From an uncultured Eubacteriales bacterium (lineage in GTDB: Bacteria; Acidobacteriota; Aminicenantia; Aminicenantales; Aminicenantaceae): a stretch of 64,000 bases of DNA. Below, one piece after another: positions 14,413 through 53,737 of the stretch (positions are counted from its first letter, which is position 1; the number at the start of each line of letters is the position of its first letter). Below the pieces are notes generated by a model. That model saw only the letters and a list, made by a program, of their open reading frames with translations. It was not told where the DNA came from and did not search any database. The position numbers and the translations under genes were made by a program. The DNA lies in NCBI GenBank assembly GCA_964505785.1, contig CAZDJZ010000007.1, positions 35,629 to 99,628 of the forward strand, written 5' to 3'.

Positions 14413-17082
14413 ATGATTATTATGTCAAAATCTATTGTCTGTCTTATCTTTTTGCTTTTGACCTCACTCGCCGGGCCGGTTTATGCCCCGGCTTCTCTTC
14501 CGCAAAATCATGACCGCACCGTTAAAGCAATCTCCCTGCATTCTCCGGTGCAAATCGATGGCCTCCTGCAAGAGCCGTGCTGGCAAAACCAAGGTTACTC
14601 AGGATTCATCCAAAGCGATCCGCTCGACGGAGAGCCAGCCACGGAAAAAACAGTAGTCTGGATTGCCTTTGACAGGGAAAATTTGTTTGTCGCCGCCCGC
14701 TTATATGACCGCTCCCCTGAAAACATCGTCAGCCGGTTGGGCCGCCGGGACGACCAGGTGGATTCGGACTGGTTTATTTTTGCCGTCGACCCATATTATG
14801 ACCGGAGAAGCGGATTTCAATTTGCGGTTAATCCAGCAGGTTCTATAATGGACAGCACTTTGTTTAATGACGAAGGCGTCGACCCAACTTGGGACGGTGT
14901 TTGGGAAAGCTCCGCCCGCAGAGATGACCAGGGATGGACAGTGGAAATGCGGATCCCTTACCATCAGCTGCGCTTTAAACCAAAAGCTGACTATATCTGG
15001 GGAGTCAATTTTTTTCGCACGATACAGCGCAAGAGTGAAAAGGATATGTATGCCTGGAAACCGAAAGAGGAAAGCGGATATGTCTCGCGGTTCGCCCCTC
15101 TGACCGGAATCCGCGATATCCATCCCGGACGCTTGATTGAACTGCAGCCGTTTTCCGTGGGTAAAGCCGGATTTCTCCGTCATGATGAAGGCGACCCCTT
15201 CAACAGCGGCCGGGAATTCACAGGAAACGCCGGCTTTGACTTTAAAGCCGGTCTACAGAGTAATCTCACTTTAAATATGACAGTCAATCCTGATTTCGGT
15301 CAGGTTGAAGTGGACCCCGCGGTTATCAATATTAGCGACCAGGAAACATACTATCAGGAGAAACGCCCGTTCTTTATTGAAGGCGCGGATATTTTCCGGT
15401 TCGGATACGGCGGGGCCAACCAGGTCCGGAATCTGGGATGGAGGAATCCCAGCTTCTTTTACAGCCGCCGCATCGGCCGGGCCCCGCAAGGATTCCCTTC
15501 GACCTCCGGTTACGTGGATGCGCCGGAGTGGTCCACTATTCTAGGTGCTGCAAAAATAACCGGAAAAATCGGAAACGGTTGGAACATCGGTTTTATGGAT
15601 GCCTTGACTCAGCGGGAATTCGCGGCCATAGATGAAAGCGGACAGCGCGCACAGCAGGAGATCGAGCCTTTTACCCATTACGGTGTTTTTCGCGCTCAAA
15701 AGGATTTCAAGGAGGGGCACCAGGGTTTGGGCCTTATTGCAACCTCAGTCATTCGGGATCTAAAGAACAGCCCTTTGGAACTCACTCTCACCAGCAGTGC
15801 GCATAGCCTGGCTCTTGATGGATGGACATTTTTGGACCAGGACCGTACCTGGGTCGTAACCGGCTGGCTGGGCGGCACGCGGGTGACCGGAACATCCGAT
15901 GCGATGACCCGCCTGCAGAAATCTTTCCTCCATTATTTTCAAAGACCCGATGCCGGCCATGTTTCAGTGGATGAAAATGCCGCTTCCCTTAACGGCTGGG
16001 CCGGCCGGATTTTTATCAATAAGCAAAAGGGCCGCCTGGTCTTCAACACCGCACTGGGTGCCATCTCTCCCGGTTTTAATGCTATGGATATGGGATATCA
16101 TTCCCGGGGAGACCTGATCAACGGACATGCTGAAGCCGGATATCAATCCTTTCATCCCGGCAGCCTGTTCCGCGACTGGAAAATCACCATGTCCACACAC
16201 CGGGGATATGATTTCACGGGGCATAAAACCGACGAATACTATAATTTCAATGCTTTCGCAAGATTTTTAAATTATTGGAGCGTAAATTTCTATTTAAGCT
16301 ACGACCCGAACCGGTACAACCACAATTTAACCCGCGGGGGACCGATGAGTCTTTATCCATGGGGATTCAGCCGGAGTCTGAGCGTCAGCAGCGACAACCG
16401 GAAACACGTGGTCTTTTCCCTGTCCGCTTTCTACCGAACCCATCCCTACGGCGCCTATAATTATTCATTCCGCGGAGGAATTTTGTGGAAAGCCCGTTCA
16501 AATTTGAGCTTATCCGTCGGCCCCAGCTATACCTGGCGCCATTCCTGCGGACAATGGGTCACGCGAATTCAAGATCCTCTTAAAACAGAAACGTACGGAA
16601 CCCGCTATATTTTCTCAGATATCATCCAGGAAACTCTCCCCGTGGAAATCCGGATTAACTGGACTTTTACTCCCAAACTCAGCTTACAGGCCTATCTGCA
16701 GCCCTTTTTAGGGGCAGGAGACTTTTTCAGATTCAAAGAATTAAAGGCCCCGCGGACATTTGATTTTCTGTTTTTCGGTGAGGACAATGTGTCAACGATC
16801 GATAAAGAGGGAGGCTTGTACACGGTCGATCCTGACGGCCCGGGTCCGGCACAGGCTTTTTCCTTCCGGGATCCGGACTTTAACCTCAAATCCATGCGCG
16901 GGACCGTGGTTCTGCGCTGGGAATACAGCCCCGGGTCCACCATTTATGCGGTATGGACCCAAAACCGCTGGGACGCATCCAACCCCGGAGACTTCGACCT
17001 GGGCCGCGATTTGGCCGACCTGCTTCAGGCCGGCGGCGATCATGTCTTTTTGTTCAAGATGAACTACCGCTTCACTTTTTAG
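14413..17082 (+). CDS. outer-membrane protein, CBM9/DOMON-like N-terminal domain plus DUF5916-like beta-barrel
   Basis: Signal peptide. VWIAFDRENLFVAARLYD...WDGVWESSARRDDQGWTVEMRIPY is CBM9-like. Long beta-rich C-terminal region ending NYRFTF (OMP-type terminal Phe). The ATG at 14422 has better RBS spacing and may be the true start. Confidence 0.75.
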   Translation: MIIMSKSIVCLIFLLLTSLAGPVYAPASLPQNHDRTVKAISLHSPVQIDGLLQEPCWQNQGYSGFIQSDPLDGEPATEKTVVWIAFDRENLFVAARLYDRSPENIVSRLGRRDDQVDSDWFIFAVDPYYDRRSGFQFAVNPAGSIMDSTLFNDEGVDPTWDGVWESSARRDDQGWTVEMRIPYHQLRFKPKADYIWGVNFFRTIQRKSEKDMYAWKPKEESGYVSRFAPLTGIRDIHPGRLIELQPFSVGKAGFLRHDEGDPFNSGREFTGNAGFDFKAGLQSNLTLNMTVNPDFGQVEVDPAVINISDQETYYQEKRPFFIEGADIFRFGYGGANQVRNLGWRNPSFFYSRRIGRAPQGFPSTSGYVDAPEWSTILGAAKITGKIGNGWNIGFMDALTQREFAAIDESGQRAQQEIEPFTHYGVFRAQKDFKEGHQGLGLIATSVIRDLKNSPLELTLTSSAHSLALDGWTFLDQDRTWVVTGWLGGTRVTGTSDAMTRLQKSFLHYFQRPDAGHVSVDENAASLNGWAGRIFINKQKGRLVFNTALGAISPGFNAMDMGYHSRGDLINGHAEAGYQSFHPGSLFRDWKITMSTHRGYDFTGHKTDEYYNFNAFARFLNYWSVNFYLSYDPNRYNHNLTRGGPMSLYPWGFSRSLSVSSDNRKHVVFSLSAFYRTHPYGAYNYSFRGGILWKARSNLSLSVGPSYTWRHSCGQWVTRIQDPLKTETYGTRYIFSDIIQETLPVEIRINWTFTPKLSLQAYLQPFLGAGDFFRFKELKAPRTFDFLFFGEDNVSTIDKEGGLYTVDPDGPGPAQAFSFRDPDFNLKSMRGTVVLRWEYSPGSTIYAVWTQNRWDASNPGDFDLGRDLADLLQAGGDHVFLFKMNYRFTF

Positions 17083-17361
17083 CTTTAATTTAGTTCGAAA
17101 TGAGTAAAAAGTAAAAAGAGAAAAGTTATCTCAAATCTGAAATTTGAAATCTGAAAAACATATCGATGCAGATTGCAAAAATCGTGTTTTTTTTAAATTT
17201 CTCCGGGCGAGGAGAGAATTCAATCGCCGCTGATAAAACCTGCTGTCAATAACCCTGAAACATTCAGGTAACTATAGTTTCTCTTGAAAATATCTGTTAA
17301 TTTAATACAATACTTAAATAATTCCTACTTGGAAGCGGGATGAAACGATTCGACAAAATAC

Positions 17362-17373
17362 AGGTATAATAAG
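17362..17373 (+). promoter_or_regulatory. recurrent AGGTATAATAAG motif (candidate extended -10 box)
   Basis: The same 12-mer occurs at 24481-24492 (+) and at 2419-2430 and 2743-2754 (-), each time upstream of and pointing toward a gene. It contains a consensus TATAAT. Confidence 0.3.
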
Positions 17374-18374
17374 TGAAAATACGATTTATCATATACAGCT
17401 TTTTTTTGACTCTGGCCCTTGCGGGGATTTTGGAGACCGCAAGCCGGATCGGGTTTATCCAGAATCTCCTTCCTATGTCCAGCCGCGGGATCAATCACCA
17501 TTTTTTAGATATGAACTTTGCCCTTTCTCAGCGGCTTGCCCATGAGCAGGGCGGCATTGATGCTGTCATGATCGGAACATCCCAGGTTATGGTATCTTTT
17601 GACCCCGAGGTCTTCAGCCGGCGTTACAATGAAATAACCGAGCGAAAAATGACCGCCTATAATTTCGGGGTGGCCGGACTGACTCTTCCTGCGAAAATCG
17701 CTCTGATAAATATTCTTTGGGATGAGTATCATCCGGAATGGCTGCTTATTGGATTATCGGTCCCGATGCTGAGCGAAAAAATCCGCCCTTCTCAGGAACG
17801 CATTTTATCCAGCCCCTGGATCCGTTACCGGAACCAGGATTTTAATTTTCCAGGCTGGCTGACCGAACATTCCCGTTTTTTCCAGTATTTCCTGCGTTTC
17901 CGCCAGTGGCTTCAGTATCCGGACTTTTCCGCCCGCATTTCGCGAAAAGAATCACGTGTATCGCCATATGGATTCAGCAATTTTAAAAATCCGTCCTCAA
18001 CCCGGAGTTTGGTTTTGGATCCGAAACGAATCCAGCGATTTCGTGATAATCTTAAAGACTATTCCATTTCGAGAGAGCGGGTGAAAGATTTGGACCGCTT
18101 GCTCTCCTTTCGAGATAAAACCAATCTGATCGTGATTGAGATGCCGGTGCATCCATATTTTAATACCTTATACAAAAACGGAGAACAGGACCACAAAAGG
18201 ACTGTTAAAATCATCCGGGACCGCTGCGCGCAGTATCGGGTTCCCTTTGTCCCCGCAGACAACCCTGCATTTGAATGCGACAGGTTATGGATTCAGACCA
18301 ATCATATGAATGCTCTGGGGGCGGAAATGTTCAGTTCCTGGCTGTCAGAAAAGTTTGCGGAGACAGTCCAATGA
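17373..18374 (+). CDS. membrane-anchored DltD/SGNH-like accessory protein (putative) of the MBOAT acylation operon
   Basis: GTG start, N-terminal TM helix IIYSFFLTLALAGIL, MIGTSQV (GDS-like block) and a C-terminal TNHMNALG block. ATGA-coupled to the MBOAT gene. The fold assignment is tentative. Confidence 0.45.
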   Translation: MKIRFIIYSFFLTLALAGILETASRIGFIQNLLPMSSRGINHHFLDMNFALSQRLAHEQGGIDAVMIGTSQVMVSFDPEVFSRRYNEITERKMTAYNFGVAGLTLPAKIALINILWDEYHPEWLLIGLSVPMLSEKIRPSQERILSSPWIRYRNQDFNFPGWLTEHSRFFQYFLRFRQWLQYPDFSARISRKESRVSPYGFSNFKNPSSTRSLVLDPKRIQRFRDNLKDYSISRERVKDLDRLLSFRDKTNLIVIEMPVHPYFNTLYKNGEQDHKRTVKIIRDRCAQYRVPFVPADNPAFECDRLWIQTNHMNALGAEMFSSWLSEKFAETVQ

Positions 18375-19789
18375 ATATTTACACAGCTTCATTTTTCTTA
18401 TTCTGCGCCGGGGTTTATATTCTGTATTACCTAACTCCACGCAAACATCAAAATTTGATTCTGCTGCTGGCGTCTTATACTTTCTACTGCCTGCTTTCCT
18501 GGCATTTTGCATTCATCCTCTTGGTCATGACCGCAGTGAACTTTATTCTGGGACAAGTTATTCACCAATCCAGCCGGCCTGGACGCTGGCTGACCGCGGG
18601 CATTCTTTTTAATATTCTGTTTCTTTTGGCATTTAAGACTGCCGGTTTTTTTATTCCCGAGCTCAGCCGTTTGATCTCAAGGATTGGCATTTCCACCCAG
18701 ACGGAAGGCTTGAGTATCATTCTGCCGGTGGGAATGTCCTTTTATATCCTGCAGGCTGTATCCTACCTGGTGGATATCCGCCGCCGGCAAATATCTCCTG
18801 CAGCCGACCCGGTCAAATTCGGACTCTTTCTGGCTTATTTTCCCAAACTGACCGCCGGTCCGATTGAAAATGCCCGAAAATTTCTCCCCCAATTGAAAAA
18901 ACCGCGCCAAATTGAAAAAGATAATATCACCCAGGGCATAACCCTTATTATTCTCGGGCTGATCCGAAAACTGGTGATTGCGGATACCATTATAACATCG
19001 GCTCCCCCTCAGCTTTTCTCCTCCCTTTTGCAGCATCCCGCCGGACATATTTTCTTTTGGGTCTTGCTGTATGGAATCGGCATTTATTTTGATTTCAGCG
19101 GTTACACCAATATCGCCCGAGGCGTCAGCCGTTTTTTCGGAATCACGCTGAGCAGAAATTTCCTGTATCCTTTATATTCGCAAAACTTTTCCGACTTCTG
19201 GAGCCGCTGGCATATCTCCCTCTCCCAATGGCTGCGTGAGTATATTTTCTTTCCCGTGACCCGAACGCTGATGCGAAAAAAACAAAATCCCGCACATTAT
19301 CTGGTGATATTGATGCCCCCGGTTTTAACCATGCTGGCGAGCGGACTTTGGCACGGGGTACGCTGGAATTTCATTGCCTGGGGATTCCTCATGGGACTCA
19401 TGCTGGCGGGCGAACGGTTATGGAGTATAAACAAGCCGGTTCAAATCCCCAGTAAAAAATCGGGCGTTTTCCGGATTCTTTCTTCACTGGGAATTCTATT
19501 TCTGTTGACAGCTGGATTCATCGTCTTTGTCATGGATTTTCCTTTGGGGCGAGCGCTGTCGACAGGACTGATCCCCGGCTTTTCCTGGTCTCCTCCCAAC
19601 TATCGGCTCGCGCTGATCATCATCCCGGGATTCATGATTGATTTTTTTCAATACCGAAAGAACAGTGAAACATTCTTTTCCAGCTGGTCCCTTTGGTCAA
19701 AAAGTTTTATGCTGGCGGCGGCCCTGGTTTTAATTGTGCTCTTTTCACAATCCCGGTTGGCCACGCCGTTTATTTATCAGGGATTTTAA
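18371..19789 (+). CDS. MBOAT-family membrane O-acyltransferase (DltB/AlgI-like)
   Basis: FWSRWHISLSQWLREYIFFP and ASGLWHG are signature MBOAT histidine motifs; multi-pass membrane protein. Start taken at MNIYTASFF (ATGA overlap with the upstream stop), not the 18275 ORF start. Confidence 0.9.
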   Translation: MNIYTASFFLFCAGVYILYYLTPRKHQNLILLLASYTFYCLLSWHFAFILLVMTAVNFILGQVIHQSSRPGRWLTAGILFNILFLLAFKTAGFFIPELSRLISRIGISTQTEGLSIILPVGMSFYILQAVSYLVDIRRRQISPAADPVKFGLFLAYFPKLTAGPIENARKFLPQLKKPRQIEKDNITQGITLIILGLIRKLVIADTIITSAPPQLFSSLLQHPAGHIFFWVLLYGIGIYFDFSGYTNIARGVSRFFGITLSRNFLYPLYSQNFSDFWSRWHISLSQWLREYIFFPVTRTLMRKKQNPAHYLVILMPPVLTMLASGLWHGVRWNFIAWGFLMGLMLAGERLWSINKPVQIPSKKSGVFRILSSLGILFLLTAGFIVFVMDFPLGRALSTGLIPGFSWSPPNYRLALIIIPGFMIDFFQYRKNSETFFSSWSLWSKSFMLAAALVLIVLFSQSRLATPFIYQGF

Positions 19790-19840
19790 CCTGATGTAGA
19801 ATCAAGGTCCTGTGACTATATGAAGAATGGGAAATTAAGA

Positions 19841-20098
19841 ATGGAAAGAAATGAATTGAAAAACAGGCTTCGGTCTTATATCCGCAAAGAAATTATTAAA
19901 AATGAAAATTACCCCCTTAAAGATGATGAACCCATGATCACCGCGGGTTTAATAAATTCCTTCTCTCTGGTTCAAATTGCAGTTTTTATTGAAGATGAAT
20001 TTAAGGTCAAGATTCCAGATACCGACTTAACCGTGGAGAACATGGATACCTTAAATGATATGGCCGCCAGGATTGAGCAGGAAATGGAATCAAAATGA
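19841..20098 (+). CDS. acyl/peptidyl carrier protein (DltC-like)
   Basis: About 85 aa and acidic, with the phosphopantetheine-site context GLINSFSLVQIAVFIEDEF. The ATG at 19841 has a GGGA RBS; the longest ORF starts at 19820. Confidence 0.75.
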   Translation: MERNELKNRLRSYIRKEIIKNENYPLKDDEPMITAGLINSFSLVQIAVFIEDEFKVKIPDTDLTVENMDTLNDMAARIEQEMESK

Positions 20099-21807
20099 CA
20101 TCACCGCGCCTGAATGTTTCTCTGACAGCGGCGCTGTTTCAGCAATTACAGACCTCCCTGGAAAAAACTGCCGTTGTATTCCGGGACACCCGCGGAGAAG
20201 AAATTTTTATTTCCCGCAGGTCTCTTCTCCAAAAAACGAAAAGATATGCTTCCGCTCTCAAAAAGCAGGGTGTCTTACCGGGACAGATGGTGATTATCGC
20301 CCTCCGCCATACACCGGAACTGATTTTTACCCTGCTCGGAACCTGGTTCGCAGGGGCCGTCCCTTCACTGTTTCCATACAAGGATTTTTTATTCAGCGGA
20401 GACGCGTATCATACCCAACTGTCCCAACGGTTAATAAAATCCAAGGCACCCTGGCTTATCACTTTGGATGAATCAGCCGAAACGATACGGAAAATGACCG
20501 GAAAAATTCAATCCTGCATCATCCCGGAAAGCGCATTAAATAAAGAGGATTTCATTCCCGGTTTTTTTAATCCTGAAACAAACCATACCGGAGAAGAAAC
20601 CGCATATGTCCAATATACAAGCGGAACCACCGGTCATAATAAGGGTGTTTTACTTAGCCATCGCGCCGTGACCGGCATGCTGGATATCTTAAAAATAAAA
20701 GTTCACCATTGCAAAAATGATGTGATCGTCAACTGGCTGCCGCTTTATCATGATTTCGGACTATTCGCCGGCTTTTTACTTCCGCTTTACGCAGGTTTGA
20801 CCCTGGTTCTCATTTCTCCTTTTGCCTGGCTTAGGAATCCGGAAATATGGCTTGATGCGATTCACCGTTATAAGGGAACGATCACATATACTCCTAATTC
20901 AGGGCTGGAACATACATTGAAATATTTCCGGCCGGAAATATATCAAGGAATAAAACTCGATTCGATCAAGATACTGGGCATCGGATCCGAACCAATCCTG
21001 CCCGGAAGCGTGGATAAATTTTGTCAATTTTTTAAGCGGCTGGGGCTGGATCCATCCACGCTGCGTCCAGGATACGGTTTGGCGGAAAATACTTTGGGTG
21101 TCTCCCTTGACACCGATCCCGGAGGGCCCCATGTCGATTCGGTAAGAATGATCTGCGCCGGCGGAAAGGAACGGGCCGAGCCGGCTCCCCAGAATGATAG
21201 TAAAGCTCATAAATATGTAAGCTCCGGGTATCCCTTGGAGAACGTCAACCTGAAAATCCTGGACCAAAAAGGGGACGCCCTTCCGGAACGCTGCATAGGC
21301 GAAATCGTCTTTAACAGCCCTTACATGTTCAAAGGTTATCTTGATGGGAAATTATCCTGTTCTTCGCCTCAAGCCGGCGCCAACGGATATTTCAGAACCG
21401 GAGACATGGGTTATATTGCAAATGGAAAATTATATGTCTGCGGCCGCAGCAAGGATTTGATCATCATGGGGGGGGGAAATTTTTTCGCGGAGGATCTTGA
21501 AGCAGCCCTGGATTCCATCTCCGGTGTTTCGCCCCGCAGCAGTGTCATCCTCGGCATTTCCGATCCAAAAAGCGGCACGGAAAACGTGATTGTCCTGGCT
21601 GGAATATATCCGGGCTTAAATAATGATACCCGGCACGAAATCGACAGGTCTATCCGCCGGATTCTCTTCCAATCTTTTGGAATTACCGCTCAAGAAGTTC
21701 ACCTGGTTAAACCCAATTGGATCACAAAAACCCATAACGGCAAGGTATCCCGCGCCGCCGCCCGTTTTAAATACGCACAGTGGAAAAAAGAGGGCCGCTT
21801 AAAATGA
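20095..21807 (+). CDS. fatty acyl-AMP ligase (FAAL-type adenylating enzyme)
   Basis: AMP-binding motifs YTSGTTGHNKG and FRTGDMGY, plus the FAAL-like GRSKDLIIMGGGNFFAEDLE. ATGA overlaps at both ends. Confidence 0.85.
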   Translation: MTSPRLNVSLTAALFQQLQTSLEKTAVVFRDTRGEEIFISRRSLLQKTKRYASALKKQGVLPGQMVIIALRHTPELIFTLLGTWFAGAVPSLFPYKDFLFSGDAYHTQLSQRLIKSKAPWLITLDESAETIRKMTGKIQSCIIPESALNKEDFIPGFFNPETNHTGEETAYVQYTSGTTGHNKGVLLSHRAVTGMLDILKIKVHHCKNDVIVNWLPLYHDFGLFAGFLLPLYAGLTLVLISPFAWLRNPEIWLDAIHRYKGTITYTPNSGLEHTLKYFRPEIYQGIKLDSIKILGIGSEPILPGSVDKFCQFFKRLGLDPSTLRPGYGLAENTLGVSLDTDPGGPHVDSVRMICAGGKERAEPAPQNDSKAHKYVSSGYPLENVNLKILDQKGDALPERCIGEIVFNSPYMFKGYLDGKLSCSSPQAGANGYFRTGDMGYIANGKLYVCGRSKDLIIMGGGNFFAEDLEAALDSISGVSPRSSVILGISDPKSGTENVIVLAGIYPGLNNDTRHEIDRSIRRILFQSFGITAQEVHLVKPNWITKTHNGKVSRAAARFKYAQWKKEGRLK

Positions 21808-23102
21808 AAATTGCGCTGATTCAACCCAAATTTACTTTCCCCGGATTATGCTGCAGCCCCATAATCACCTCCGCTCTGTCGGATATCCATACGTATTTCC
21901 TGCGCTGGAATACCCCTAACCTCGGATTATTAACGATAGCCGCATATATTCCGGAAGACTGGGATATAAGCTATATTCATAAAGAGGCCAAGGAAATTGA
22001 CTGCTTCGAAGATTTTGACCTGGTCGCCCTCAGCTGCATGACCCGCGAAGCGGAAACTGTATATGAAATTTCCAGCCGTTTCCGCAAAAAGGGAATATAT
22101 ACTGTCGTCGGGGGCATCCACGCTTCTGTTTTCCCCGAGGAAGCCCACCGCTATGCAGATACGGTTTTCGTCGGCGAAGCTGAAGAAACATTCCCGCGTT
22201 TCCTGCAGGACTTCCGGGCCGGACAGGCCGCTGAAATCTATCAATCCCCGGACCCGGTTGACCTGACCTTGTCTCCCAAGCCCCGTTTCAGCATCCTGCC
22301 TCACCGGTATCCCGGCTACCCTATTCAAACAACACGCGGATGTCCGCATGGATGTGAATTCTGCGCCGCCAGTCTTTACGGCCGAAAATACAGGTATAAA
22401 GAAATTGATCAAATCATCGATGAAATTTCTTATTTAAAATCATTGGTGTCCAATCCTTTTATTGTATTTTCCGATGACAACTTATTTGTAAATAAACCCC
22501 GTTCCCTAAAGCTCCTTGAAAAATTAATTCCATTAAAGGTCGAATGGCAGGCTATTACAGATGTCTCCACAGCGGATGATCCAGAATTGCTCCGCCTGCT
22601 TTACAGGGCGGGCTGCCGGGAAATCTTTTTAGGCCTTGAGAGCCTGAATCCTGATCACATCCGCAATATAGATCCCAATGGTTGGAAGTCGAGGAGGGTT
22701 AAGCATTACCAGGCCTGCATTCAAAAAATAAAACACGAGGGCATCCGGGTATTGGGGGCCTTCATCCTCGGTTTTGATGATCAAACTCCGGAAGATTTCC
22801 AGGCCGTCAAGCAGTTTGTTCTGGATAATCACATCATGCCTCAATATTCAATTCTAACACCAGTCCCCGGATCAAAACTTTATTCCAAGTATAAAAAAGC
22901 GGGACGCCTTCTGAAAGACAAATCCTGGAGGTATTATAATTTCCTGGATTGCGTCTTTAAGCATCCTATTATGACGGCCGAGGAATTGGAAACAGCGATA
23001 GCGGACCTTTATAAATCCACCTTTACAAGAGAGCATATGTCTCTGATTATAAAAGACATGATCCAGGCGAAAAAACGCAACCGCATGCGGAAATTATCAT
23101 GA
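21804..23102 (+). CDS. B12-binding-domain radical SAM protein
   Basis: The N-terminal MKIALIQPKF...DLVALSCMT...VVGGIHAS region is a cobalamin-binding-like Rossmann segment. Radical SAM cluster motif TTRGCPHGCEFCAAS. Start at 21804 gives an ATGA overlap with the FAAL stop. Confidence 0.85.
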   Translation: MKIALIQPKFTFPGLCCSPIITSALSDIHTYFLRWNTPNLGLLTIAAYIPEDWDISYIHKEAKEIDCFEDFDLVALSCMTREAETVYEISSRFRKKGIYTVVGGIHASVFPEEAHRYADTVFVGEAEETFPRFLQDFRAGQAAEIYQSPDPVDLTLSPKPRFSILPHRYPGYPIQTTRGCPHGCEFCAASLYGRKYRYKEIDQIIDEISYLKSLVSNPFIVFSDDNLFVNKPRSLKLLEKLIPLKVEWQAITDVSTADDPELLRLLYRAGCREIFLGLESLNPDHIRNIDPNGWKSRRVKHYQACIQKIKHEGIRVLGAFILGFDDQTPEDFQAVKQFVLDNHIMPQYSILTPVPGSKLYSKYKKAGRLLKDKSWRYYNFLDCVFKHPIMTAEELETAIADLYKSTFTREHMSLIIKDMIQAKKRNRMRKLS

Positions 23103-24362
23103 ATGAACCGGATCTCCCGTATAATGCGGAACCACGGAAATGCCATAGGGCATAACCCAAACCAAGGCGCCGGGGCCCTTAATTTCCATTGCCTGGTCCA
23201 GGGCGGACTGGACTGAGCAGAACTGGGGGAAGAAAAGCTTATTGCGAATTTGATTCGGCAATTCTGAAACAAGATAAATGGGCGTCCGCAAGTGAATAGC
23301 GGCCATACGGGAAGCAATATGGCGGCCCTGCACAAAATGAGACTCTAATTCAGCCGCCAGGTCTTCCGGACGAGGATTGTCCTCAAACACACCGGCAAAA
23401 ACCGGCACCCCAAGCCCTTCCTTACATTCTCCTGCCGCAATCATAATGCCGTCTTTTTTAAGGGCGGGCAAAGCATGTTCCATGGCTTTATGGGTTTGAT
23501 AAAGATCACAGTCTTTGGGGTCGCCTCCCGGGGTAACGACCACAATATCCGCCCGGTGGTCTATCTTGAGTCGCGCAGTCCGGTCTAGAAACCGGGCCCC
23601 TTCCCGGTGAGCAGCCCGGACATCGCCGGCCACAATCCGCAAGAGTTCTTTCTTTCCGTTTAATACCGCATTAACGATAAAATCCACACCAGCCATGTCC
23701 GCGATTTCCTCCAGCTCGCTGCGCAAGGGATTTCCTTCCAGATTTCCCGGCCTGCACCCGGAGCTGGTGAAGCGGCTGTGATTGGCCGATGCCGTCTCAC
23801 GGCTGCATAACCCCGGAGCCACAGCCTTGGCTCCGCCGCTGTACCCGGCAAAATAATGAAATTCAATATTCCCGGTGGCAATGATAAAATCCGCCTTCAT
23901 GGCTTCCCGGAATATCTCCGCCCGGGTGCCGAGAGAGGTGGTGCCGGCATAAATACAATCCCCGGGATTGTGTTCGATGCAGCGGTAATTCCTGTAAATT
24001 TCTTCGCCGATCAAATGGATTTTCTCCTCTTCCGTCTGCGGCCGGTGGATACCCAGAGCAAACACAATAGTTATATCGCCGGATGATACGCCTCCTATAT
24101 GCAGCTCCTCCAGAATCGGGGGAAGCAGAACGTGACTTGGAGACGGCCGGGTAATATCGCTGACAACAATTAAAATTGTCTTATTCGGCCTGACGCGGTC
24201 CCGCAAACAGGAGCTGGAAATGGGATCCGCCAGCGCTCGGCGGACTTCGGCTTCCGGATCCGGGATCGGGGGAACTTTTTCCGGCTGCAGCAAACCTAAA
24301 TAATTTTTATCCGGAAGCCTGAGCGTTATCGTTTTTTTTCCGTAAGGCAATTTAATTTTCAT
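23097..24362 (-). CDS. LarA-like (DUF2088) nickel-pincer-dependent 2-hydroxyacid racemase/epimerase family protein
   Basis: N-terminus MKIKLPYGKKTITLRLPDKNYLGLLQP and overall 421-aa architecture typical of the lactate racemase N-terminal domain family. Substrate unknown. Confidence 0.65.
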   Translation of the reverse strand: MKIKLPYGKKTITLRLPDKNYLGLLQPEKVPPIPDPEAEVRRALADPISSSCLRDRVRPNKTILIVVSDITRPSPSHVLLPPILEELHIGGVSSGDITIVFALGIHRPQTEEEKIHLIGEEIYRNYRCIEHNPGDCIYAGTTSLGTRAEIFREAMKADFIIATGNIEFHYFAGYSGGAKAVAPGLCSRETASANHSRFTSSGCRPGNLEGNPLRSELEEIADMAGVDFIVNAVLNGKKELLRIVAGDVRAAHREGARFLDRTARLKIDHRADIVVVTPGGDPKDCDLYQTHKAMEHALPALKKDGIMIAAGECKEGLGVPVFAGVFEDNPRPEDLAAELESHFVQGRHIASRMAAIHLRTPIYLVSELPNQIRNKLFFPQFCSVQSALDQAMEIKGPGALVWVMPYGISVVPHYTGDPVHS

Positions 24363-47625: not shown

Positions 47626-48606
47626 TTATTTAATCAGCTCACGAAGCTGCGGGATCAGGTTCTCGATAATTGGGACCTGAGGATCATCATCCGGAGCCAC
47701 TTCCAGATACTTTTCAAAGCTCTCGATAGCAACGGCATAATCTCCTAAGTTAAGCAGCGCATATCCTTTCTGGCGGTAAGGAGGCTCCCACTCAGGTTTA
47801 ATTTCTATAGCGATGTTATAATATTGCACTGCCTCTGCGGGTTTACCTTGTTTGAAATAGATTTCACCGACATTAAACGCCATAGTCTCATCTTTGGGAA
47901 AAACATCTACAGCTTCCCGCAAGTAATCTCCGGCTTTGTCCAATTGATCCATGGAGATATATGCTTCTCCTATCCCGGCTAAAGCGCGGGCAGCCGCTTC
48001 CTCGCCCTCCAAAGATCCTTTTTCTTCCCGGACTTTTTCCAAGACTGTCTCGTAGGCGGCAATAGCCTCCTCATATTCACCCGCTTCCTTTAACGCGTTT
48101 CCGATATTGATATTAACCTGGTAAATGGTCGGCTGTTTTTCCAAGAACTCCCGATACTTCGCAACAGCCTCTTGAAATTTTCCTTCTTCGAACAACTGGT
48201 TGCCTTCTTCGAACAAGGCAAGCGTTTCCTGGTTTCCCAGATCGGAGATGCCGGTGTCTTGAATTTTCTGAAGGGTCATATCTACAGGAGGGTTATTGCT
48301 TGAAAACTGGCTGACATTCATCCGGTCCTTCACCGGGATATAGCCTTCTTTTGTTGCCGTAATAATAAATACGCCGGTTCCCAGGCCGGCAATGGCCCAG
48401 TTCCCTTTACTATCTGACTTCGCGGAAAACGTAGTCCCGAATTCAGCGTGCTCCGCTGTAATTTCTACTCCTTTAACGGGTTTTCCTTCGCTGTCAAAAA
48501 CAGTGCCGTGAATACGGCCCCGGCCTCTTCCCTGCTGCGCTATAAGAAAATTGGAGCCTAAAAAAAGGACTAGAGCTATTATGATACCAATTTTATTTTT
48601 ATTCAT
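47626..48606 (-). CDS. secreted CarboxypepD_reg-domain plus TPR-repeat protein
   Basis: Start at MNKNKIGIIIALVLFLG (48606). GTVFDSEGKPVKGVEITA is a CarboxypepD_reg motif. This is followed by five or more TPR-like repeats (AIAAYETVLE, AVQYYNIAIEIKP). Confidence 0.75.
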   Translation of the reverse strand: MNKNKIGIIIALVLFLGSNFLIAQQGRGRGRIHGTVFDSEGKPVKGVEITAEHAEFGTTFSAKSDSKGNWAIAGLGTGVFIITATKEGYIPVKDRMNVSQFSSNNPPVDMTLQKIQDTGISDLGNQETLALFEEGNQLFEEGKFQEAVAKYREFLEKQPTIYQVNINIGNALKEAGEYEEAIAAYETVLEKVREEKGSLEGEEAAARALAGIGEAYISMDQLDKAGDYLREAVDVFPKDETMAFNVGEIYFKQGKPAEAVQYYNIAIEIKPEWEPPYRQKGYALLNLGDYAVAIESFEKYLEVAPDDDPQVPIIENLIPQLRELIK

Positions 48607-48715
48607 CACTTCCTCCTCGCCCGGGCCGCATACGCCGGCTGAAAGACCCAAGCGCGTAACATATTTCTTTATTCAGTCTCATTTTAATTTAATCAAAGCG
48701 AAAATTCAACTTTTC

Positions 48716-49720
48716 CTACTTATTAAAGGAAAACCGGATAACCTTTCTTAATCTGGTTTCGCCGGTTTGGTTTATCAAAGTTGCGAAAAAGCTGTTTTTC
48801 CCCTGTTTTAGTTTCCGGATGGACTCCGCATCATCTATGACAAACGGAATTTCCATTTTGTAGCTTTCCTTCTTGTTTTTTTTCAATTGTTCTTCCGGAA
48901 TCCGGACTTCAAATGATTCTTTATAGTCCCAGATCAGATCCCCTTTAACATCATTGAGTTCAAGCTGAAGAGACAAGGTCGTCGCTAAATCTTCGCCTTC
49001 TTCGGTGAACCACATATTGGCATAGGGAATTCCAAAATCCAATGTTCCGCTGAGCCGCTCGTCATTTCCTTCAATGTCCTGAATCGACCAATTAAAACTA
49101 AAAAAACCTTCCCTGCCGGTAATGGTCTGCTGGGCATCCGCCTGGGCACGGCTGAGGTGGTGCATATACATTAAATTGATTTCTCTTAGCCCGGTCAGAT
49201 CATATGTGACCAGATTATATGAACCAGTACAAGTCCGGTCAACAAAGACAACCGGGAAATTGCCGTAATACCAGGTTTCCTGGCACCTGCCTGAATAGCT
49301 TTGAGGATAGGTGATTCTATCCATAGGCGGCCCGAATAGAATATAAATCCGGCCCCGGTCTGTCAGCCAGCCCGGACGCCCTTCGCTGATAAATATGTCA
49401 TTAGCCCGTTCAATCCGGTTATAATATTCCATTCGAAATTCATTTTCCTCGGTTGTTGGGTCCGGATCCCGTTTTTCCCAGAATTCACGGATAAATTCAT
49501 CTTTGTCTTCGTCCGGAAGCTCCAGGAAAAGACGTTTTTCTTTATTTGAAATGATATACCGGACCTTGTTGATAAAGTCTTCATGATCGGGAGACAACTG
49601 CTTTTCCAGATTATAATAATGACAGGATACCGTCATCCAAACCGCTGCGGCGATTCCCAAGAATAAAACCCAGCGGAGAACCCGATGCCTTGCTAATTTA
49701 TTTTTTATATGCTGATTCAT
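48716..49720 (-). CDS. GWxTD-domain protein
   Basis: FIREFWEKRDP...YYNRIERANDIF...GRPGWLTDRGRIYILFGPP matches the GWxTD domain signature. ATGA-coupled to the upstream paralog. Confidence 0.8.
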   Translation of the reverse strand: MNQHIKNKLARHRVLRWVLFLGIAAAVWMTVSCHYYNLEKQLSPDHEDFINKVRYIISNKEKRLFLELPDEDKDEFIREFWEKRDPDPTTEENEFRMEYYNRIERANDIFISEGRPGWLTDRGRIYILFGPPMDRITYPQSYSGRCQETWYYGNFPVVFVDRTCTGSYNLVTYDLTGLREINLMYMHHLSRAQADAQQTITGREGFFSFNWSIQDIEGNDERLSGTLDFGIPYANMWFTEEGEDLATTLSLQLELNDVKGDLIWDYKESFEVRIPEEQLKKNKKESYKMEIPFVIDDAESIRKLKQGKNSFFATLINQTGETRLRKVIRFSFNK

Positions 49721-51789
49721 CTTTTTTTCTCCTTCAGGATTTCCAGGTTCTTTTTGATTTCAGGTTGATTGGTGTTGATCTCCAATGATTTCTCCCAGGC
49801 GGCCTGGGCTTCCACTAAATTTCCCGCCTGAAAATAACATTCCCCGATAACATTGAGAAGCGCGGCATTCAATCCATGCTCAGATATCGCCTCATTAAAA
49901 ACCTTGATTGCTTTGTTCATTTCTCCCCGGTATTGATAGGATTTACCCAGAATGAAATAAACTTCATAAGCAGGATTTTCTTCTCTTTCCATGACAGGTG
50001 TAAGCAGCGGTTCTACTTCAGCATATTCCTTGCGATTCATATATACCCGCGCCAAGCTAAGTGATATGGTATTCGAGTCCGGCTCTTTTTGGTAAGCAGC
50101 CTGCATGTATTGCATCGCTTTATCCATATCACCTTTATTAAAATACTGGGTGCCTAAGACATAATCGTACATCGGATCTTCCGTCCCAGCCAGAAGCTGG
50201 TTGTAAATCCAGGGACGGGGAATATTTTCAACATGAGTGAGATCAAACTCATCCCTTCCTGAAAAAACTTTTTGGTCATTTAATTGGAAATCCACTTCCA
50301 CGACATAATGGGCCGGGGTGAAATCCTGAAGAGAAAGCTGTTCGATTATAAGGGGAAGATTTTCATATCCACTGACATTCCGGGTAAAAGACTGAAATTC
50401 TTCGTCGTTCTTCAATAAGGTATATTTGAGTATTCCTTGCTCCTTTTGTAACGGAGACAGCCCATGAAGCTGAAAAATTATGACCAATTTATCCGTCCTT
50501 AGAAAAATGCGATTGGCCTGAAAGTGAATCTGATATTCACCGGCTTGAAAGGGACGTATCCGGTTTTCCCGGGTCGGTTTGTCCGCAAGATCATAACCCA
50601 GCAGCAGAGAGGTCATCTGCAGCTTATCGTCTTCATCAGGAATAATCAATTTCCTTTCCAAGGTCGTAAATTCCTTGGAAATCTCATTCTTCAGCATAAT
50701 CGTCAGATCATATTTCCCGGGAATCAGAGGAAACATGTCCCGGATGCTAATGGGACGGTGACTGACCTGTTTGATCTGTTCTTCAGAAAATTCAAGAGGA
50801 ATCGTTCTGTCAAATTGATAAATAATCGTATCTTCCTCATCTTTAACCGTTCCATTCAGCTGAAGGGTCGTATAATATTTATTTTCGTACATATTAACGG
50901 AAAGTCTTTCCGGTTCCAGAGCATAATTCACTAAGTATAGATTTTCGGATTCTTTTGATATGGAAACAAAACCGTCGCTGTCCATATAATTGGCTGTGTA
51001 TTCAACCTCCACGCTATCCTTGTATTCAAGAAACTTTTCGGCATAACGGTCCTTAATTTCCCGGACCGGAGTGGATTCTACACGGTTGACCAGCATATCC
51101 GAGGACATGCTGGGCCGGCCCATTGACAAATTCCGCTCGCCCGGAATTAAGGTCAAAGACACTTCCGCAAGGGCAGGATCCACATTCATGAGCTGCTCAT
51201 AGGCGGCCATATAATTGGATTGGTCCCCGTCGTAAGATGTCAATAAACCCTGAGGTCCATCCGTAAGCGGACTGTAGAGCTTGTATTCCCCGACTCCGCC
51301 GTCCTGAAAAAAAACCAAATTGAACCCCGGAGGGAGACCCTTATCGGTCATTCCCTGATAAAACCAGACTTCGGTAGGGTATACCTGATTTTTTCCCTCA
51401 AACCTTTGTATATCATTGGGTTCACCCAAGATGATATACATTCGGCCCCTATCTGTCCGCCATCCCTCTTTAGGAGCACTTCGTCCAAAAAAATGGTTTA
51501 CGTAGTTTATCCGGCGGAAATGTTCTTCACGGAATTCATTCTTTTCGGTATTCATCGTCGGATCTCTTTGTTTCCAAAAAGCTTCGATGAACAAATCCCG
51601 TTCCCTGTCGCTGCTCAGTTTTAAAAACACTTCCTTTTCCAAGGGAGAAATAATATAAACGACTTCTTTTTCCAGCCACTCCCGGTGGCGTTGGGAAAGT
51701 TCTTTTACCGAATCTGAATAAACAGATAAACATAAAGCAGATGCAAGCAATAGCAATGCAATGCTTTTTTTTATTATTCGAACAGCCAT
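49717..51789 (-). CDS. GWxTD-domain protein with C-terminal TPR repeats
   Basis: FIEAFWKQRDP...HFRRINYVNHFF...PKEGWRTDRGRMYIILGEPN, with C-terminal TPR-like repeats and a signal peptide. Confidence 0.8.
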   Translation of the reverse strand: MAVRIIKKSIALLLLASALCLSVYSDSVKELSQRHREWLEKEVVYIISPLEKEVFLKLSSDRERDLFIEAFWKQRDPTMNTEKNEFREEHFRRINYVNHFFGRSAPKEGWRTDRGRMYIILGEPNDIQRFEGKNQVYPTEVWFYQGMTDKGLPPGFNLVFFQDGGVGEYKLYSPLTDGPQGLLTSYDGDQSNYMAAYEQLMNVDPALAEVSLTLIPGERNLSMGRPSMSSDMLVNRVESTPVREIKDRYAEKFLEYKDSVEVEYTANYMDSDGFVSISKESENLYLVNYALEPERLSVNMYENKYYTTLQLNGTVKDEEDTIIYQFDRTIPLEFSEEQIKQVSHRPISIRDMFPLIPGKYDLTIMLKNEISKEFTTLERKLIIPDEDDKLQMTSLLLGYDLADKPTRENRIRPFQAGEYQIHFQANRIFLRTDKLVIIFQLHGLSPLQKEQGILKYTLLKNDEEFQSFTRNVSGYENLPLIIEQLSLQDFTPAHYVVEVDFQLNDQKVFSGRDEFDLTHVENIPRPWIYNQLLAGTEDPMYDYVLGTQYFNKGDMDKAMQYMQAAYQKEPDSNTISLSLARVYMNRKEYAEVEPLLTPVMEREENPAYEVYFILGKSYQYRGEMNKAIKVFNEAISEHGLNAALLNVIGECYFQAGNLVEAQAAWEKSLEINTNQPEIKKNLEILKEKKR

Positions 51790-52352: not shown

Positions 52353-52585
52353 ACAAAAGCTTCGCGATTTGACATTATAGCGATATATGCAGATGCTGTA
52401 AAGTGAAAAGATACTTGACAAATATTACATCCGGCGTATCTTTAAAATGCGTGAGCAATTCCCCAAAATTATTCCCAGTAATGAACATCTGTCTTTTTTC
52501 CGGACAATACAATTCTCTGCTTTTATTTTTCCACTCGGCGGGCAACCTAAGTCTAATAAGGTCCCAGCCTTTTTTAGGAGGACAT

Positions 52586-53737
52586 ATGAAATTATTAAAC
52601 CAGGGACAACTCGAATCTCTCTCAAGATTCCGCAGCCGGAAACTTCCCATGATTTCCTTATTTCTCGATACCAGCCGCAACCGTCTTTCCAAGAAAGAGA
52701 TTCAAATTTCCCTCAAAAATTTGCTTCAGCATGGAAGGTCGAGGCTGAATCAAATGGATTTTTCCAAATCAGAAAAGGAATTCTTATCAAAGGAACTTGA
52801 TAAAATCGGCGCATACTGTTCACGCCGTCTTCCCGGTTATAAGTATGTTGGGATGGCGGTTTTCAGCTCTACAAAAGATGATTTCTGGCAAGATTTCGAA
52901 TTGGTAAAATCCCCGCGGAATATGATTATTTTTGACCAATCTCCATATGTGCGTCCCCTTTCTGCTGTTCTGGATGAATACCACCGGATTTGTGTTGTTA
53001 CATCCGATAAAAAATCCGCAGCTTGGTATGGCGTGTACATGGGAGAAATCACCCGGCTTGAAACTCTTTCCGGGAAAGATGAGCCCCAGCCGCGGGAATC
53101 AGGCCGGGAAGAATATAGTTCCAAGCGGATTGAACGCCATATAAATTCGATTCAGCACAGTCATTTTAAAAAAGCGGCGAAAACCACCTTTGATTTATGG
53201 AAACAGCATAAATTCGAGTGGCTTTTCATGGGAATTCCTGATAAATATGTCCCTGAATTTGAATCCCTTCTGCATCCATATATTAAAAAGAGCATTAAGG
53301 CCCGCATTAAAATAAAGCCCCAAGACTCTATGTCAAAAATCCTATCCAAAACTTTAGAGTTGAAACAAAAATTAAAAGAAGATGAGAGGAATGAAATTGT
53401 TAAGCGTTTTATAAAGGAATCCCATAAAGACGGTCTGGCGGTTGCCGGATTGGAACCAACCCTGAATAAACTGAACCGGGGTGAAATACAAACAATGCTT
53501 GTTACCCGATTTTTTTCTCAGCCGGGGATGCAATGCCCGGAATGCGGTTTTCTTTATCTTACCCGGAAAACCTGTTCCGTCTGCCATAAACCGACAGAAA
53601 AAGTTATGGACATCGTTGACCATGCGGTGGAAAACGCTTTGAACTCAAGCTGCCGGGTCAAGCACATCAGTCCGCCCTCTGATCTGGATGCTTACGGGAA
53701 AATCGGCGGTTTTCTCCGCTATAAAACGACGACCTGA
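52586..53737 (+). CDS. bacterial archaeo-eukaryotic release-factor-like protein (aeRF1/Pelota/Vms1-like, baeRF family) with C-terminal zinc ribbon insert
   Basis: Start at the ATG at 52586 after a taggagg RBS. ISLFLDT, SPYVRPL and VVTSDKKSAAWYGVY blocks. DGLAVAGLEPTLNKLNRGEIQTMLV resembles eRF1 domain 3. CPECG...CSVCH is a Zn ribbon. The C-terminal end is GKIGGFLRY. Confidence 0.55.
   Translation: MKLLNQGQLESLSRFRSRKLPMISLFLDTSRNRLSKKEIQISLKNLLQHGRSRLNQMDFSKSEKEFLSKELDKIGAYCSRRLPGYKYVGMAVFSSTKDDFWQDFELVKSPRNMIIFDQSPYVRPLSAVLDEYHRICVVTSDKKSAAWYGVYMGEITRLETLSGKDEPQPRESGREEYSSKRIERHINSIQHSHFKKAAKTTFDLWKQHKFEWLFMGIPDKYVPEFESLLHPYIKKSIKARIKIKPQDSMSKILSKTLELKQKLKEDERNEIVKRFIKESHKDGLAVAGLEPTLNKLNRGEIQTMLVTRFFSQPGMQCPECGFLYLTRKTCSVCHKPTEKVMDIVDHAVENALNSSCRVKHISPPSDLDAYGKIGGFLRYKTTT

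Follow-up and report, generated by a model that had tools for sequence, protein, structure and literature searches.

Two types of MBOAT/SGNH acyl transfer pathway have been described: in the Dlt type the donor is a carrier protein, the shuttle DltX is separate and the group transferred is D-alanine, whereas in the rest the donor is acyl-CoA, the shuttle is fused to the MBOAT and the group is acetate (PMC12148441). The shuttle is defined by the motif FxYxxF. Its Tyr is acylated by the MBOAT (the acyl-Tyr intermediate of DltX and PatA) and then donates the acyl group to the catalytic Ser of the SGNH protein; in Dlt systems the motif resides in the microprotein DltX, whereas PatA, AlgI and WssH carry it within the MBOAT itself, on two additional helices (PMC12148441). 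The same 2025 mechanistic paper describes the non-Dlt pathways as lacking a carrier protein and using acyl-CoA (PMC12148441). Here we analyze an operon located at positions 17373-23102 of a 64,000-nucleotide stretch of DNA (contig CAZDJZ010000007.1, positions 35,629 to 99,628, from an uncultured bacterium of the Aminicenantaceae), referred to as the window. The operon probably (we put this at about 0.6) encodes a carrier-protein-dependent MBOAT-SGNH pathway that would bring an acyl group from the cytoplasm to an extracytoplasmic acceptor of a diderm host. Since a predicted shuttle motif, FIYQGF, is fused to the MBOAT, the system can be considered a hybrid in which a fused-shuttle MBOAT would be fed by a carrier protein.

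Organization of the operon

The operon consists of five co-directional open reading frames (ORFs), all of them confirmed by ORF listing (Table 1). These encode g1, which is an SGNH/DltD-like protein, the MBOAT, a carrier protein, an adenylase of the fatty-acyl-AMP ligase (FAAL) type, and a radical S-adenosylmethionine (SAM) enzyme with a B12-binding domain. Three of the four junctions are ATGA start/stop overlaps, at 18371 (g1/MBOAT), 20095 (carrier protein/FAAL) and 21804 (FAAL/radical SAM enzyme). A previous inspection of this DNA, hereafter the sequence-only reading, had described five tightly packed genes with three such overlaps and had quoted a number of peptide motifs from their products; the ORFs and the DNA letters agree with this description, and every one of the motifs was found in the corresponding protein. 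Searches with Pfam models identified the MBOAT, PP-binding, AMP-binding, and B12-binding plus Radical_SAM domains, and only g1 was left without a significant match. A scan for promoters and terminators across the operon gave counts not above those in shuffled sequence and no convincing internal terminator, which is not evidence either way; one promoter-like site lies in the gap 5' of g1.

Table 1. Genes, sequence motifs and other features of the operon and its surroundings (window coordinates).
Feature	Position	Strand	Description
DUF5916 protein	14413-17082		889 aa; directly upstream of the operon; ends aromatic (…NYRFTF)
Promoter-like site	17284-17311		10/12; inside the 290-nt gap 5' of g1
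g1, SGNH/DltD-like protein	17373-18374	+	333 aa, GTG start; fold from structure prediction
g1 block I	17568-17591		MIGTSQVM, predicted catalytic Ser70
g1 block II	17661-17669		NFG, Gly99
g1 EMPVHP	18138-18155		Glu256
g1 block V	18294-18317		QTNHMNAL, predicted catalytic His311
MBOAT	18371-19789	+	472 aa; Pfam MBOAT 8.5e-23
MBOAT His motif	19199-19225		WSRWHISLS, His281
MBOAT His motif	19343-19357		GLWHG, His328
MBOAT C-terminus	19769-19786		FIYQGF, Tyr469
Carrier protein	19841-20098	+	85 aa; Pfam PP-binding 1.2e-5
Carrier protein attachment site	19946-19972		GLINSFSLV, predicted phosphopantetheine Ser40
FAAL-type adenylase	20095-21807	+	570 aa; Pfam AMP-binding 1.3e-58
Adenylase A3	20614-20643		YTSGTTGHNK
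Adenylase A7	21391-21405		FRTGD
Adenylase A10	21727-21750		KTHNGKVS, A10 Lys
B12-domain radical SAM enzyme	21804-23102	+	432 aa; Pfam B12-binding 2.6e-13, Radical_SAM 1.2e-18
Radical SAM core	22341-22364		CPHGCEFC (CxxxCxxC)
LarA-family nickel-pincer racemase	23097-24362	-	best model malate racemase LarAH6, 478.6 bits (cutoff 500)
TonB-receptor-like outer-membrane barrel	44.3-47.5 kb		
GWxTD and TPR proteins	47626-51789 and 52403-53737		two GWxTD-domain proteins, one with TPR repeats; a further TPR/CarboxypepD_reg protein
Efflux set	54.1-59.6 kb		AcrB-type RND, membrane-fusion protein and OEP/TolC-like genes

Components of the predicted transfer machinery

The only sequence relatives of the MBOAT among solved structures are DltB proteins (6bug, 2.9e-31; 8jem), and both of its His motifs align to the WH motifs of DltB. 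The best NCBIfam model is also that of DltB (TIGR04091), which scores 184 bits versus a cutoff of 375. The last six residues of the protein conform to FxYxxF, a motif present within the final 40 residues in 86 of 88 reading frames for related MBOATs retrieved from genomes. Conservation is at least 95% for H281, H328, F467, Y469 and F472 in 30 MBOATs that are linked to g1. About 143 residues follow His328, which we take to be some 60 more than follow the catalytic His of DltB, and they include extra hydrophobic segments at residues 369-387 and 440-465. This longer C-terminal part, the additional segments and the FIYQGF end are the reasons for assigning to this MBOAT the fused shuttle architecture, and, going by the ORF coordinates, a DltX-like gene would not fit anywhere among the five. 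As judged from these features, the MBOAT is not of the DltB type and carries its own FxYxxF shuttle motif. In a rough neighbor-joining tree (no bootstrap) the carrier-linked MBOATs form a subclade inside the g1-linked ones. Residues specific to the carrier-linked proteins include R24, R138, R179, R302 and several Tyr. A scan of the GTDB species representatives for the MBOAT detected nothing above 42% identity.

The partner protein, g1, has a single N-terminal hydrophobic helix (residues 3-21). Its only Pfam match is a sub-threshold one to Lipase_GDSL_2 (0.0045), with none to the Pfam DltD model, and neither Pfam nor NCBIfam returned anything significant for g1 or for ten further members of its family, which comprises 387 clusters at 50% identity (E<=1e-30, full HMMER scan) and has no Pfam model. 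The only sequence match of the family profile in the Protein Data Bank (PDB) is DltD, over block V, and it is not significant (E 0.27). The AlphaFold2 model, of moderate confidence (pLDDT 77, pTM 0.77), matched TesA-type SGNH hydrolases (1e-4) and the DltD structures 3bma, 7dxm and 6pfx (TMq 0.46-0.49, E about 2e-4) in a Foldseek search of the PDB, with the DltD structures having the highest query coverage. The proposal of the sequence-only reading that this protein is SGNH/DltD-like is therefore supported at the level of the fold. Forty family members were compared, and Ser70 (GxS, block I), Gly99 (NFG), Glu256 (EMPVHP) and His311 (block V) proved either invariant or conserved in at least 90% of them. 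Genes of the g1 family are nearly always immediately upstream of an MBOAT gene, both in Leptolinea genomes and in 38 loci from metagenomes, and the near universality of this pairing in the metagenomic loci indicates that MBOATs of this clade have g1 as their dedicated SGNH partner. Two metagenome-assembled genomes (MAGs) of Leptolinea (L003, L005) carry tandem duplicated pairs of MBOAT and g1-like genes, two per locus, with neither carrier protein nor adenylase.

The carrier protein gene has an alternative upstream ATG at 19820 that would yield 92 amino acids, although the gene calls in relatives correspond to 85. In the (D/N)SF(S/A) segment that includes the predicted attachment site, only the first Ser is conserved across lineages. 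The protein is a stand-alone carrier of type II. Its nearest relatives among solved structures are PltL, itself of type II (4.8e-10), and AcpM, while DltC reaches just 0.011; neither of the two DltC models of NCBIfam reaches its cutoff (28.1 bits against 68, and 19.5 bits against 52.35). The protein belongs to a distinct and highly conserved subfamily, with 30 clusters at 90% identity among 5.8 billion, and is the best conserved component of the system, with 57-63% identity in divergent lineages versus 43-49% for the MBOAT and 30-34% for g1. The best NCBIfam match is 'ACP_for_OlsHI', at 42.7 bits with a cutoff of 130. A link to ornithine lipids was considered and discarded, given this score and the different enzymes of the OlsH/OlsI pathway, which works with a GH3-like enzyme and an alpha/beta hydrolase, without MBOAT or FAAL (PMC12493201).

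The best NCBIfam models for the adenylase are the fatty-acyl-AMP/long-chain ligase subfamilies PRK07768 (294 bits) and PRK09192 (286 bits), and the FadD32, FadD21, FadD28 and MbtM FAAL models are also among its best matches. The top 18 solved relatives are all FAALs or FAAL-type loading domains (3kxw from Legionella, 2.9e-54; 3pbk from E. coli; FadD32, FadD23 and FadD28), and all of them activate fatty or long-chain acids with the exception of McyG and an 'amino acid adenylation domain' protein (6ulx/6ulw). DltA is absent from the best 25 NCBIfam matches and from the PDB matches at E<=1e-20. When tested for a grouping with D-alanine or amino-acid ligases, the enzyme thus grouped with FAALs in both databases. 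An insertion in the N-terminal domain defines FAALs. We take it to lie between motifs A5 and A6, corresponding here to residues 338-372, and this segment aligns without gaps to the Legionella FAAL 3kxw; the distance from A5 to A7 is 107 residues, presumably exceeding that of ordinary ANL enzymes by about 20. Motifs A3, A5, A7, A8 and the A10 Lys are all present. By these sequence criteria the adenylase is FAAL-type and not DltA-like, and it would presumably load the adjoining carrier protein instead of CoA. Its earlier description as fatty-acid specific is borne out as to family placement, with the specificity itself being a prediction at the family level.

Conservation in other lineages

In this survey the identities are those of g1 to the g1 of the window, and L and P numbers designate metagenomic or genomic loci and contigs. 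The close relatives, which together with the window form one clade (L088, L086/87 and L082/84, at 83, 70 and 69%, respectively), have g1-MBOAT-carrier protein-FAAL with conserved flanks. The same four genes occur in the same order in L092 and the P0006 contig (44-46%), where a sulfotransferase gene and a GT4 glycosyltransferase gene come next, and in L096 (30%). L129 (34%) has all five genes, including that of the B12-type radical SAM enzyme, in a locus with DegT, two GT2, two sulfotransferase and one methyltransferase genes. In L130 (30%) g1 is on the divergent strand of an MBOAT-carrier protein-B12-type radical SAM unit that has no adjacent FAAL gene. L132 (1-15888) and L133 (32%) show a rearranged order, four sulfotransferases-GT4-g1-carrier protein-FAAL-MBOAT followed by a SPASM/twitch-type radical SAM gene in place of the B12 type and then by two sulfotransferases and a GT2. 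The P0143 contig includes sulfotransferases followed by g1-like-MBOAT-carrier protein and breaks off inside the gene that follows. Finally, L134 (7204-9152) has no g1 gene and includes only the carrier protein-FAAL pair, near a TMEM260_N (GT-C-like) gene.

The core genes are therefore found together in six or more divergent lineages of uncultured bacteria, the window clade plus five others, with a changed order in one of them (L132/L133), and this recurrence indicates that the arrangement is not due to chance. The conserved core consists of four genes: g1, MBOAT, carrier protein and FAAL. An MBOAT gene is adjacent in seven of the eight lineages of the carrier-protein subfamily in which the context can be read. 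The linkage that outlasted the reordering in L132, the conservation of the carrier protein and the MBOAT subclade lead us to consider the four genes as one functional unit. Sulfotransferase genes, usually together with glycosyltransferase genes, flank the cluster in L092, P0006, L129, L132/133 and P0143.

The radical SAM enzyme

The last gene of the operon encodes a protein with an N-terminal B12-binding domain followed by a CxxxCxxC core, both domains passing the Pfam cutoffs, and C180, C184 and C187 are invariant in 44 homologues. The predicted architecture is that of class B radical SAM enzymes. No NCBIfam model reaches its cutoff, the best being HpnJ at 106 bits versus 577. The AlphaFold2 model (pLDDT 93.5) has AprD4 as best fold match by a wide margin (E 2.5e-23, TM 0.73-0.75), followed by TsrM, MgmA, CysS, OxsB and TokK, and AprD4 is the best sequence match as well (6.1e-10). 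AprD4 is a radical SAM sugar 1,2-diol dehydratase, not a methyltransferase; it possesses a B12-binding domain yet reportedly needs no cobalamin.

The B12-type gene is present in four lineages (the window, L086/87, L129 and L130) and absent from L082/84, L092, the P0006 contig and L096. In L082/84, the FAAL gene is followed after 72 nt by a convergent LarA gene; the contig of L088 diverges right after the FAAL stop codon, 50 nt before its end. The radical SAM gene is consequently an accessory of the cluster and not part of its core. The sequence-only reading had regarded the enzyme as coupled to the adenylase, which is correct as to the ATGA overlap of the two genes in the window but does not extend to several relatives, L082/84 included. 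Among homologues whose context is known, the nearest three (71%, 52% and 47% identity) all belong to MBOAT-carrier protein clusters, and a homologue with 50% identity is labelled 'Candidatus Aminicenantes'. A more distant one (41%) was found in L131 (3072-17311), in a cluster without MBOAT that encodes at least four further radical SAM proteins (three with a B12-binding domain) along with a carrier protein, a PEP-utilising enzyme and a thiolase. This L131 cluster looks like an unusual lipid or polyketide-like pathway.

Genomic context of the operon

The earlier proposal that the host is diderm is confirmed by the genes for an efflux set, a TonB-receptor-like barrel and a DUF5916 protein resembling outer-membrane proteins within the window. 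Outer-membrane proteins often end in an aromatic residue, as is the case for the DUF5916 protein. The DUF5916 gene was considered as a core part of the system and rejected, as its synteny is limited to close relatives with wholly conserved flanks and it is missing from all divergent clusters. The same applies to the gene of the LarA-like racemase, which is convergent to the radical SAM gene, with a 6-nt overlap at their ends, and is syntenic in close relatives only; it was not retained as part of the operon. Elsewhere in the window, the genes for GWxTD and TPR proteins are followed by one for a baeRF_family10 (release-factor-like) protein.

Other carrier-linked MBOAT loci

A different combination was observed in Pseudoneobacillus rhizosphaerae (L045, 8106-12453), where a carrier protein (85 aa), a non-FAAL adenylase (464 aa), an MBOAT of 483 aa with FVYGGF as its end and a 323-aa protein without Pfam match are encoded in this order. 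Bacillales clusters of this type were also found in L048, L049, L066, L076, L077 and L078. The best NCBIfam model for the adenylase of this type is an exosortase-associated acyl-CoA ligase, and the DltA models score about 100-110 bits. The Bacillales cluster looks like a second, independent carrier-fed fused-shuttle MBOAT system, distinct from classical Dlt. In a Magnetococcales MAG (L046, 6939-12867) a carrier protein is encoded together with a methyltransferase/PIG-L fusion, a 298-aa protein and an MBOAT (475 aa) that has the fused shuttle motif; a convergent gene similar to class II aminoacyl-tRNA synthetases matches 'amino acid--[acyl-carrier-protein] ligase' with 170 bits (cutoff 357). 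This could be a case of an MBOAT fed by an aminoacyl-carrier protein. Together, the Bacillales and Magnetococcales clusters suggest that the theme of carrier-linked, fused-shuttle MBOATs is broader.

In L050 (4986-14527; Bacteroidales UBA6248), the genes for a FAAL, a sulfotransferase and a PMT_2/TPR protein are divergent to those for an MBOAT, a DUF1574-like protein and a DegT aminotransferase, and the locus showed no carrier protein belonging to the subfamily of the window. The DUF1574 match is marginal and limited to the MBOAT partner of L050.

Proposed pathway and alternative explanations

From the domain identities, catalytic motifs, gene coupling and co-conservation, all of which are direct observations, we infer the following chemical steps, acid and acceptor. 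The FAAL-type enzyme would adenylate a carboxylic acid, most probably an aliphatic one such as a medium- or long-chain acid, and load it as a thioester on the Ser40 phosphopantetheine of the carrier protein, as expected from the properties of the families and the coupling of the genes. Where present, the radical SAM enzyme may tailor the carrier-bound acyl group or a sugar acceptor, a step that is speculative. The MBOAT would take the acyl-carrier protein at the cytoplasmic face, and His328 and His281 would move the acyl group to Tyr469 on the periplasmic side, by homology to DltB/DltX and PatA. The FIYQGF tail would then pass it to Ser70 of the membrane-anchored g1, which would esterify the final acceptor, probably a hydroxyl group of a surface glycan; in the relatives, such a glycan could be made by the adjacent glycosyltransferases and sulfotransferases. 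An acyl-Tyr469 intermediate formed from the acyl-carrier protein and a subsequent acyl-Ser70 intermediate are thus predicted. The chemistry would be that of Dlt and PatAB (PMC12148441), the donor being of the Dlt type and the shuttle of the PatA type.

The Dlt-like transfer with its genes in D-B-C-A order, as proposed by the sequence-only reading, holds in outline: the adenylase groups with the FAALs, g1 has a predicted SGNH/DltD-like fold and the core genes are co-conserved. It has to be modified in three respects: the MBOAT is of the fused-shuttle kind, the radical SAM enzyme is accessory to a core of four genes, and for the proposed periplasmic or outer-membrane acceptor the neighborhoods of the relatives point to a glycan.

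Several observations weigh against the proposed pathway. In about 30 of the 38 metagenomic g1-MBOAT loci, as well as in those of Leptolinea, neither a carrier protein nor an adenylase is encoded nearby, and a hidden Markov model of the carrier protein found no carrier in them; these pairs presumably use acyl-CoA, and their abundance indicates that this MBOAT architecture can work carrier-free. Conversely, the carrier protein-FAAL pair of L134, with no MBOAT within about 7 kb, indicates that this pair can serve other partners, and L130 has MBOAT, carrier protein and radical SAM genes in a row yet lacks an adjacent FAAL gene. In block V of g1, the family consensus keeps DxxH, while the window clade has Gln308 at the position of the Asp. 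Some of these facts would be accounted for if the operon were composed of two modules, a g1-MBOAT pair acting as an acetyl-CoA O-acetyltransferase similar to PatA/PatB or AlgI/AlgJ, and a carrier protein/FAAL/radical SAM set making an unrelated lipid or metabolite. The fused-shuttle build is indeed that of the known acetyl-CoA users, and the 41% relative of the radical SAM enzyme is encoded in the lipid-like L131 carrier protein/thiolase/multi-radical SAM cluster, without MBOAT. Nevertheless, we consider two modules quite improbable, the least likely of the explanations discussed here: the four genes remain linked down to 30% g1 identity, even after the reordering in L132, an MBOAT gene accompanies the subfamily's carrier protein (30 clusters) in nearly all readable lineages, the carrier-linked MBOATs group phylogenetically, and the coding is tight and overlapping. 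A further point against the pathway as proposed concerns the acid. All NCBIfam FAAL scores are well below their cutoffs, which makes the adenylase a divergent member of the FAALs, and enzymes of this family can activate non-fatty acids. The same architecture could then transfer a short, hydroxylated, aromatic or amino-type acid and produce a change of charge or decoration similar to D-alanylation, as might be expected from the presence of McyG, a loading enzyme of the FAAL clade with another substrate, among the PDB matches, from the peptidyl-type PltL as the closest solved relative of the carrier protein, and from the variable donor chemistry suggested by the non-FAAL adenylase of L045 and the amino acid:carrier-protein ligase of L046. 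With McyG and 6ulx/6ulw set aside, however, the top 18 structures are of enzymes activating fatty or long-chain acids, and the gap-free alignment of residues 338-372 to the Legionella FAAL points in the same direction, so that we regard a non-fatty group as unlikely.

As for the acceptor, no glycan-synthesis genes adjoin the operon within the window, which also speaks against the pathway as proposed. The window itself gives no clue, and the sulfotransferase and glycosyltransferase neighbors in five other lineages are the reason to believe that the acceptor is probably a (sulfated) glycan. Lipid A or the lipopolysaccharide core, a lipoprotein, peptidoglycan, or an outer-membrane protein would be the alternatives, and the DUF5916 gene, encoding a protein of outer-membrane type directly upstream and syntenic in L082 and L088, provides a candidate for the last of these. 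Such acceptors seem rather unlikely, since the DUF5916 linkage is confined to close relatives and is absent from L092, L096, L129, L130 and L132, of which L092, L129 and L132 have sulfotransferase and glycosyltransferase genes as neighbors and L096 has a sulfatase gene. The radical SAM enzyme, by analogy with its relatives, probably tailors either the tethered acyl chain or a sugar. Its closeness to AprD4 in both fold and sequence, and the fact that the clusters of the relatives are glycan loci, suggest an AprD4-like diol dehydratase or deoxygenase, with no methyltransferase activity, that acts on the sugar acceptor. Tailoring of the acyl chain is in turn suggested by the next structural relatives CysS and TokK, which work on pantetheine-tethered substrates, by the L130 radical SAM gene directly 3' of the carrier-protein gene in its MBOAT-carrier protein-radical SAM unit, and by distant family members that adjoin carrier proteins in lipid-like clusters. 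Action on the sugar is accordingly a substantial possibility, somewhat short of even odds.

If the carrier-dependent pathway is correct, the operon would be responsible for a new envelope modification, the installation of a long or unusual acyl group outside the cytoplasmic membrane. The sulfotransferase-rich glycan loci of the relatives suggest the presence of acylated sulfated glycans in anaerobic groups about which little is known. Surface modifications of this kind usually affect charge, hydrophobicity, susceptibility to phages and antimicrobials, and biofilm properties. We tentatively extend the proposal, with less than even confidence, to an unrecognized class of carrier-fed, fused-shuttle MBOAT-SGNH machines that put a fatty acyl group, in some cases tailored by a radical SAM enzyme, on a (sulfated) surface glycan of uncultured diderms. 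Should this be so, the Bacillales and Magnetococcales clusters would mean that the swapping of donor modules on MBOAT-SGNH pairs is a general route to envelope acylation beyond acetate and D-alanine.

Comparison with known systems

The combination of a fused shuttle, a carrier protein and a fatty-acid-type adenylase predicts a third type of pathway besides the two described. A search of the full-text literature found nothing that joins an MBOAT with an acyl carrier protein and a FAAL, or with a sulfotransferase, and the remark in the sequence-only reading that no characterized example is known agrees with the searchable literature, in which we found no description of such a system. The logic is that of Dlt (DltA-DltC-DltB-DltX-DltD, teichoic acid D-alanylation in Firmicutes), where the acyl group goes from an adenylase to a stand-alone carrier, the MBOAT, the Tyr of FxYxxF and an anchored SGNH protein. 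DltB is the sole solved sequence relative of the MBOAT, and DltD structures rank among the best matches to the predicted fold of g1. In contrast to Dlt, the adenylase is FAAL-type, the carrier protein is not a DltC equivalog, and the MBOAT, with a score about half the DltB cutoff, carries the shuttle motif itself in the absence of a DltX gene; the host is diderm and a radical SAM gene is attached. Failing the DltA, DltC and DltB equivalogs and DltX, the operon is not a Dlt system.

PatA/PatB (peptidoglycan), AlgI/AlgJ/AlgX (alginate) and WssH/WssI (cellulose) have in common with the operon an MBOAT of about 470 amino acids with FxYxxF at the extreme C-terminus, a separate neighboring gene for the SGNH partner, the location in the periplasm of diderms and a likely polysaccharide acceptor. 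They differ in that here a dedicated carrier protein and a FAAL are co-conserved with the pair, and in that g1 matches no Pfam family of SGNH partners. The known FAAL-carrier modules (FadD32/FadD28, MbtM and the Legionella and E. coli FAALs) share the adenylase clade and the adjoining carrier protein gene, but hand over to polyketide synthases, non-ribosomal peptide synthetases or soluble acyltransferases, while here the recipient would be an MBOAT, a handover by a FAAL-carrier protein module for which the searchable literature gave no example. If the acyl group is fatty, the operon also resembles the eukaryotic HHAT, PORCN and GOAT, MBOATs that move a fatty acyl group across the membrane onto an extracytoplasmic substrate. 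These enzymes use acyl-CoA and act directly on proteins, without an SGNH partner or a Tyr shuttle. Were the tentatively proposed class of carrier-fed machines to exist, it would be a bacterial counterpart of eukaryotic MBOAT lipidation.

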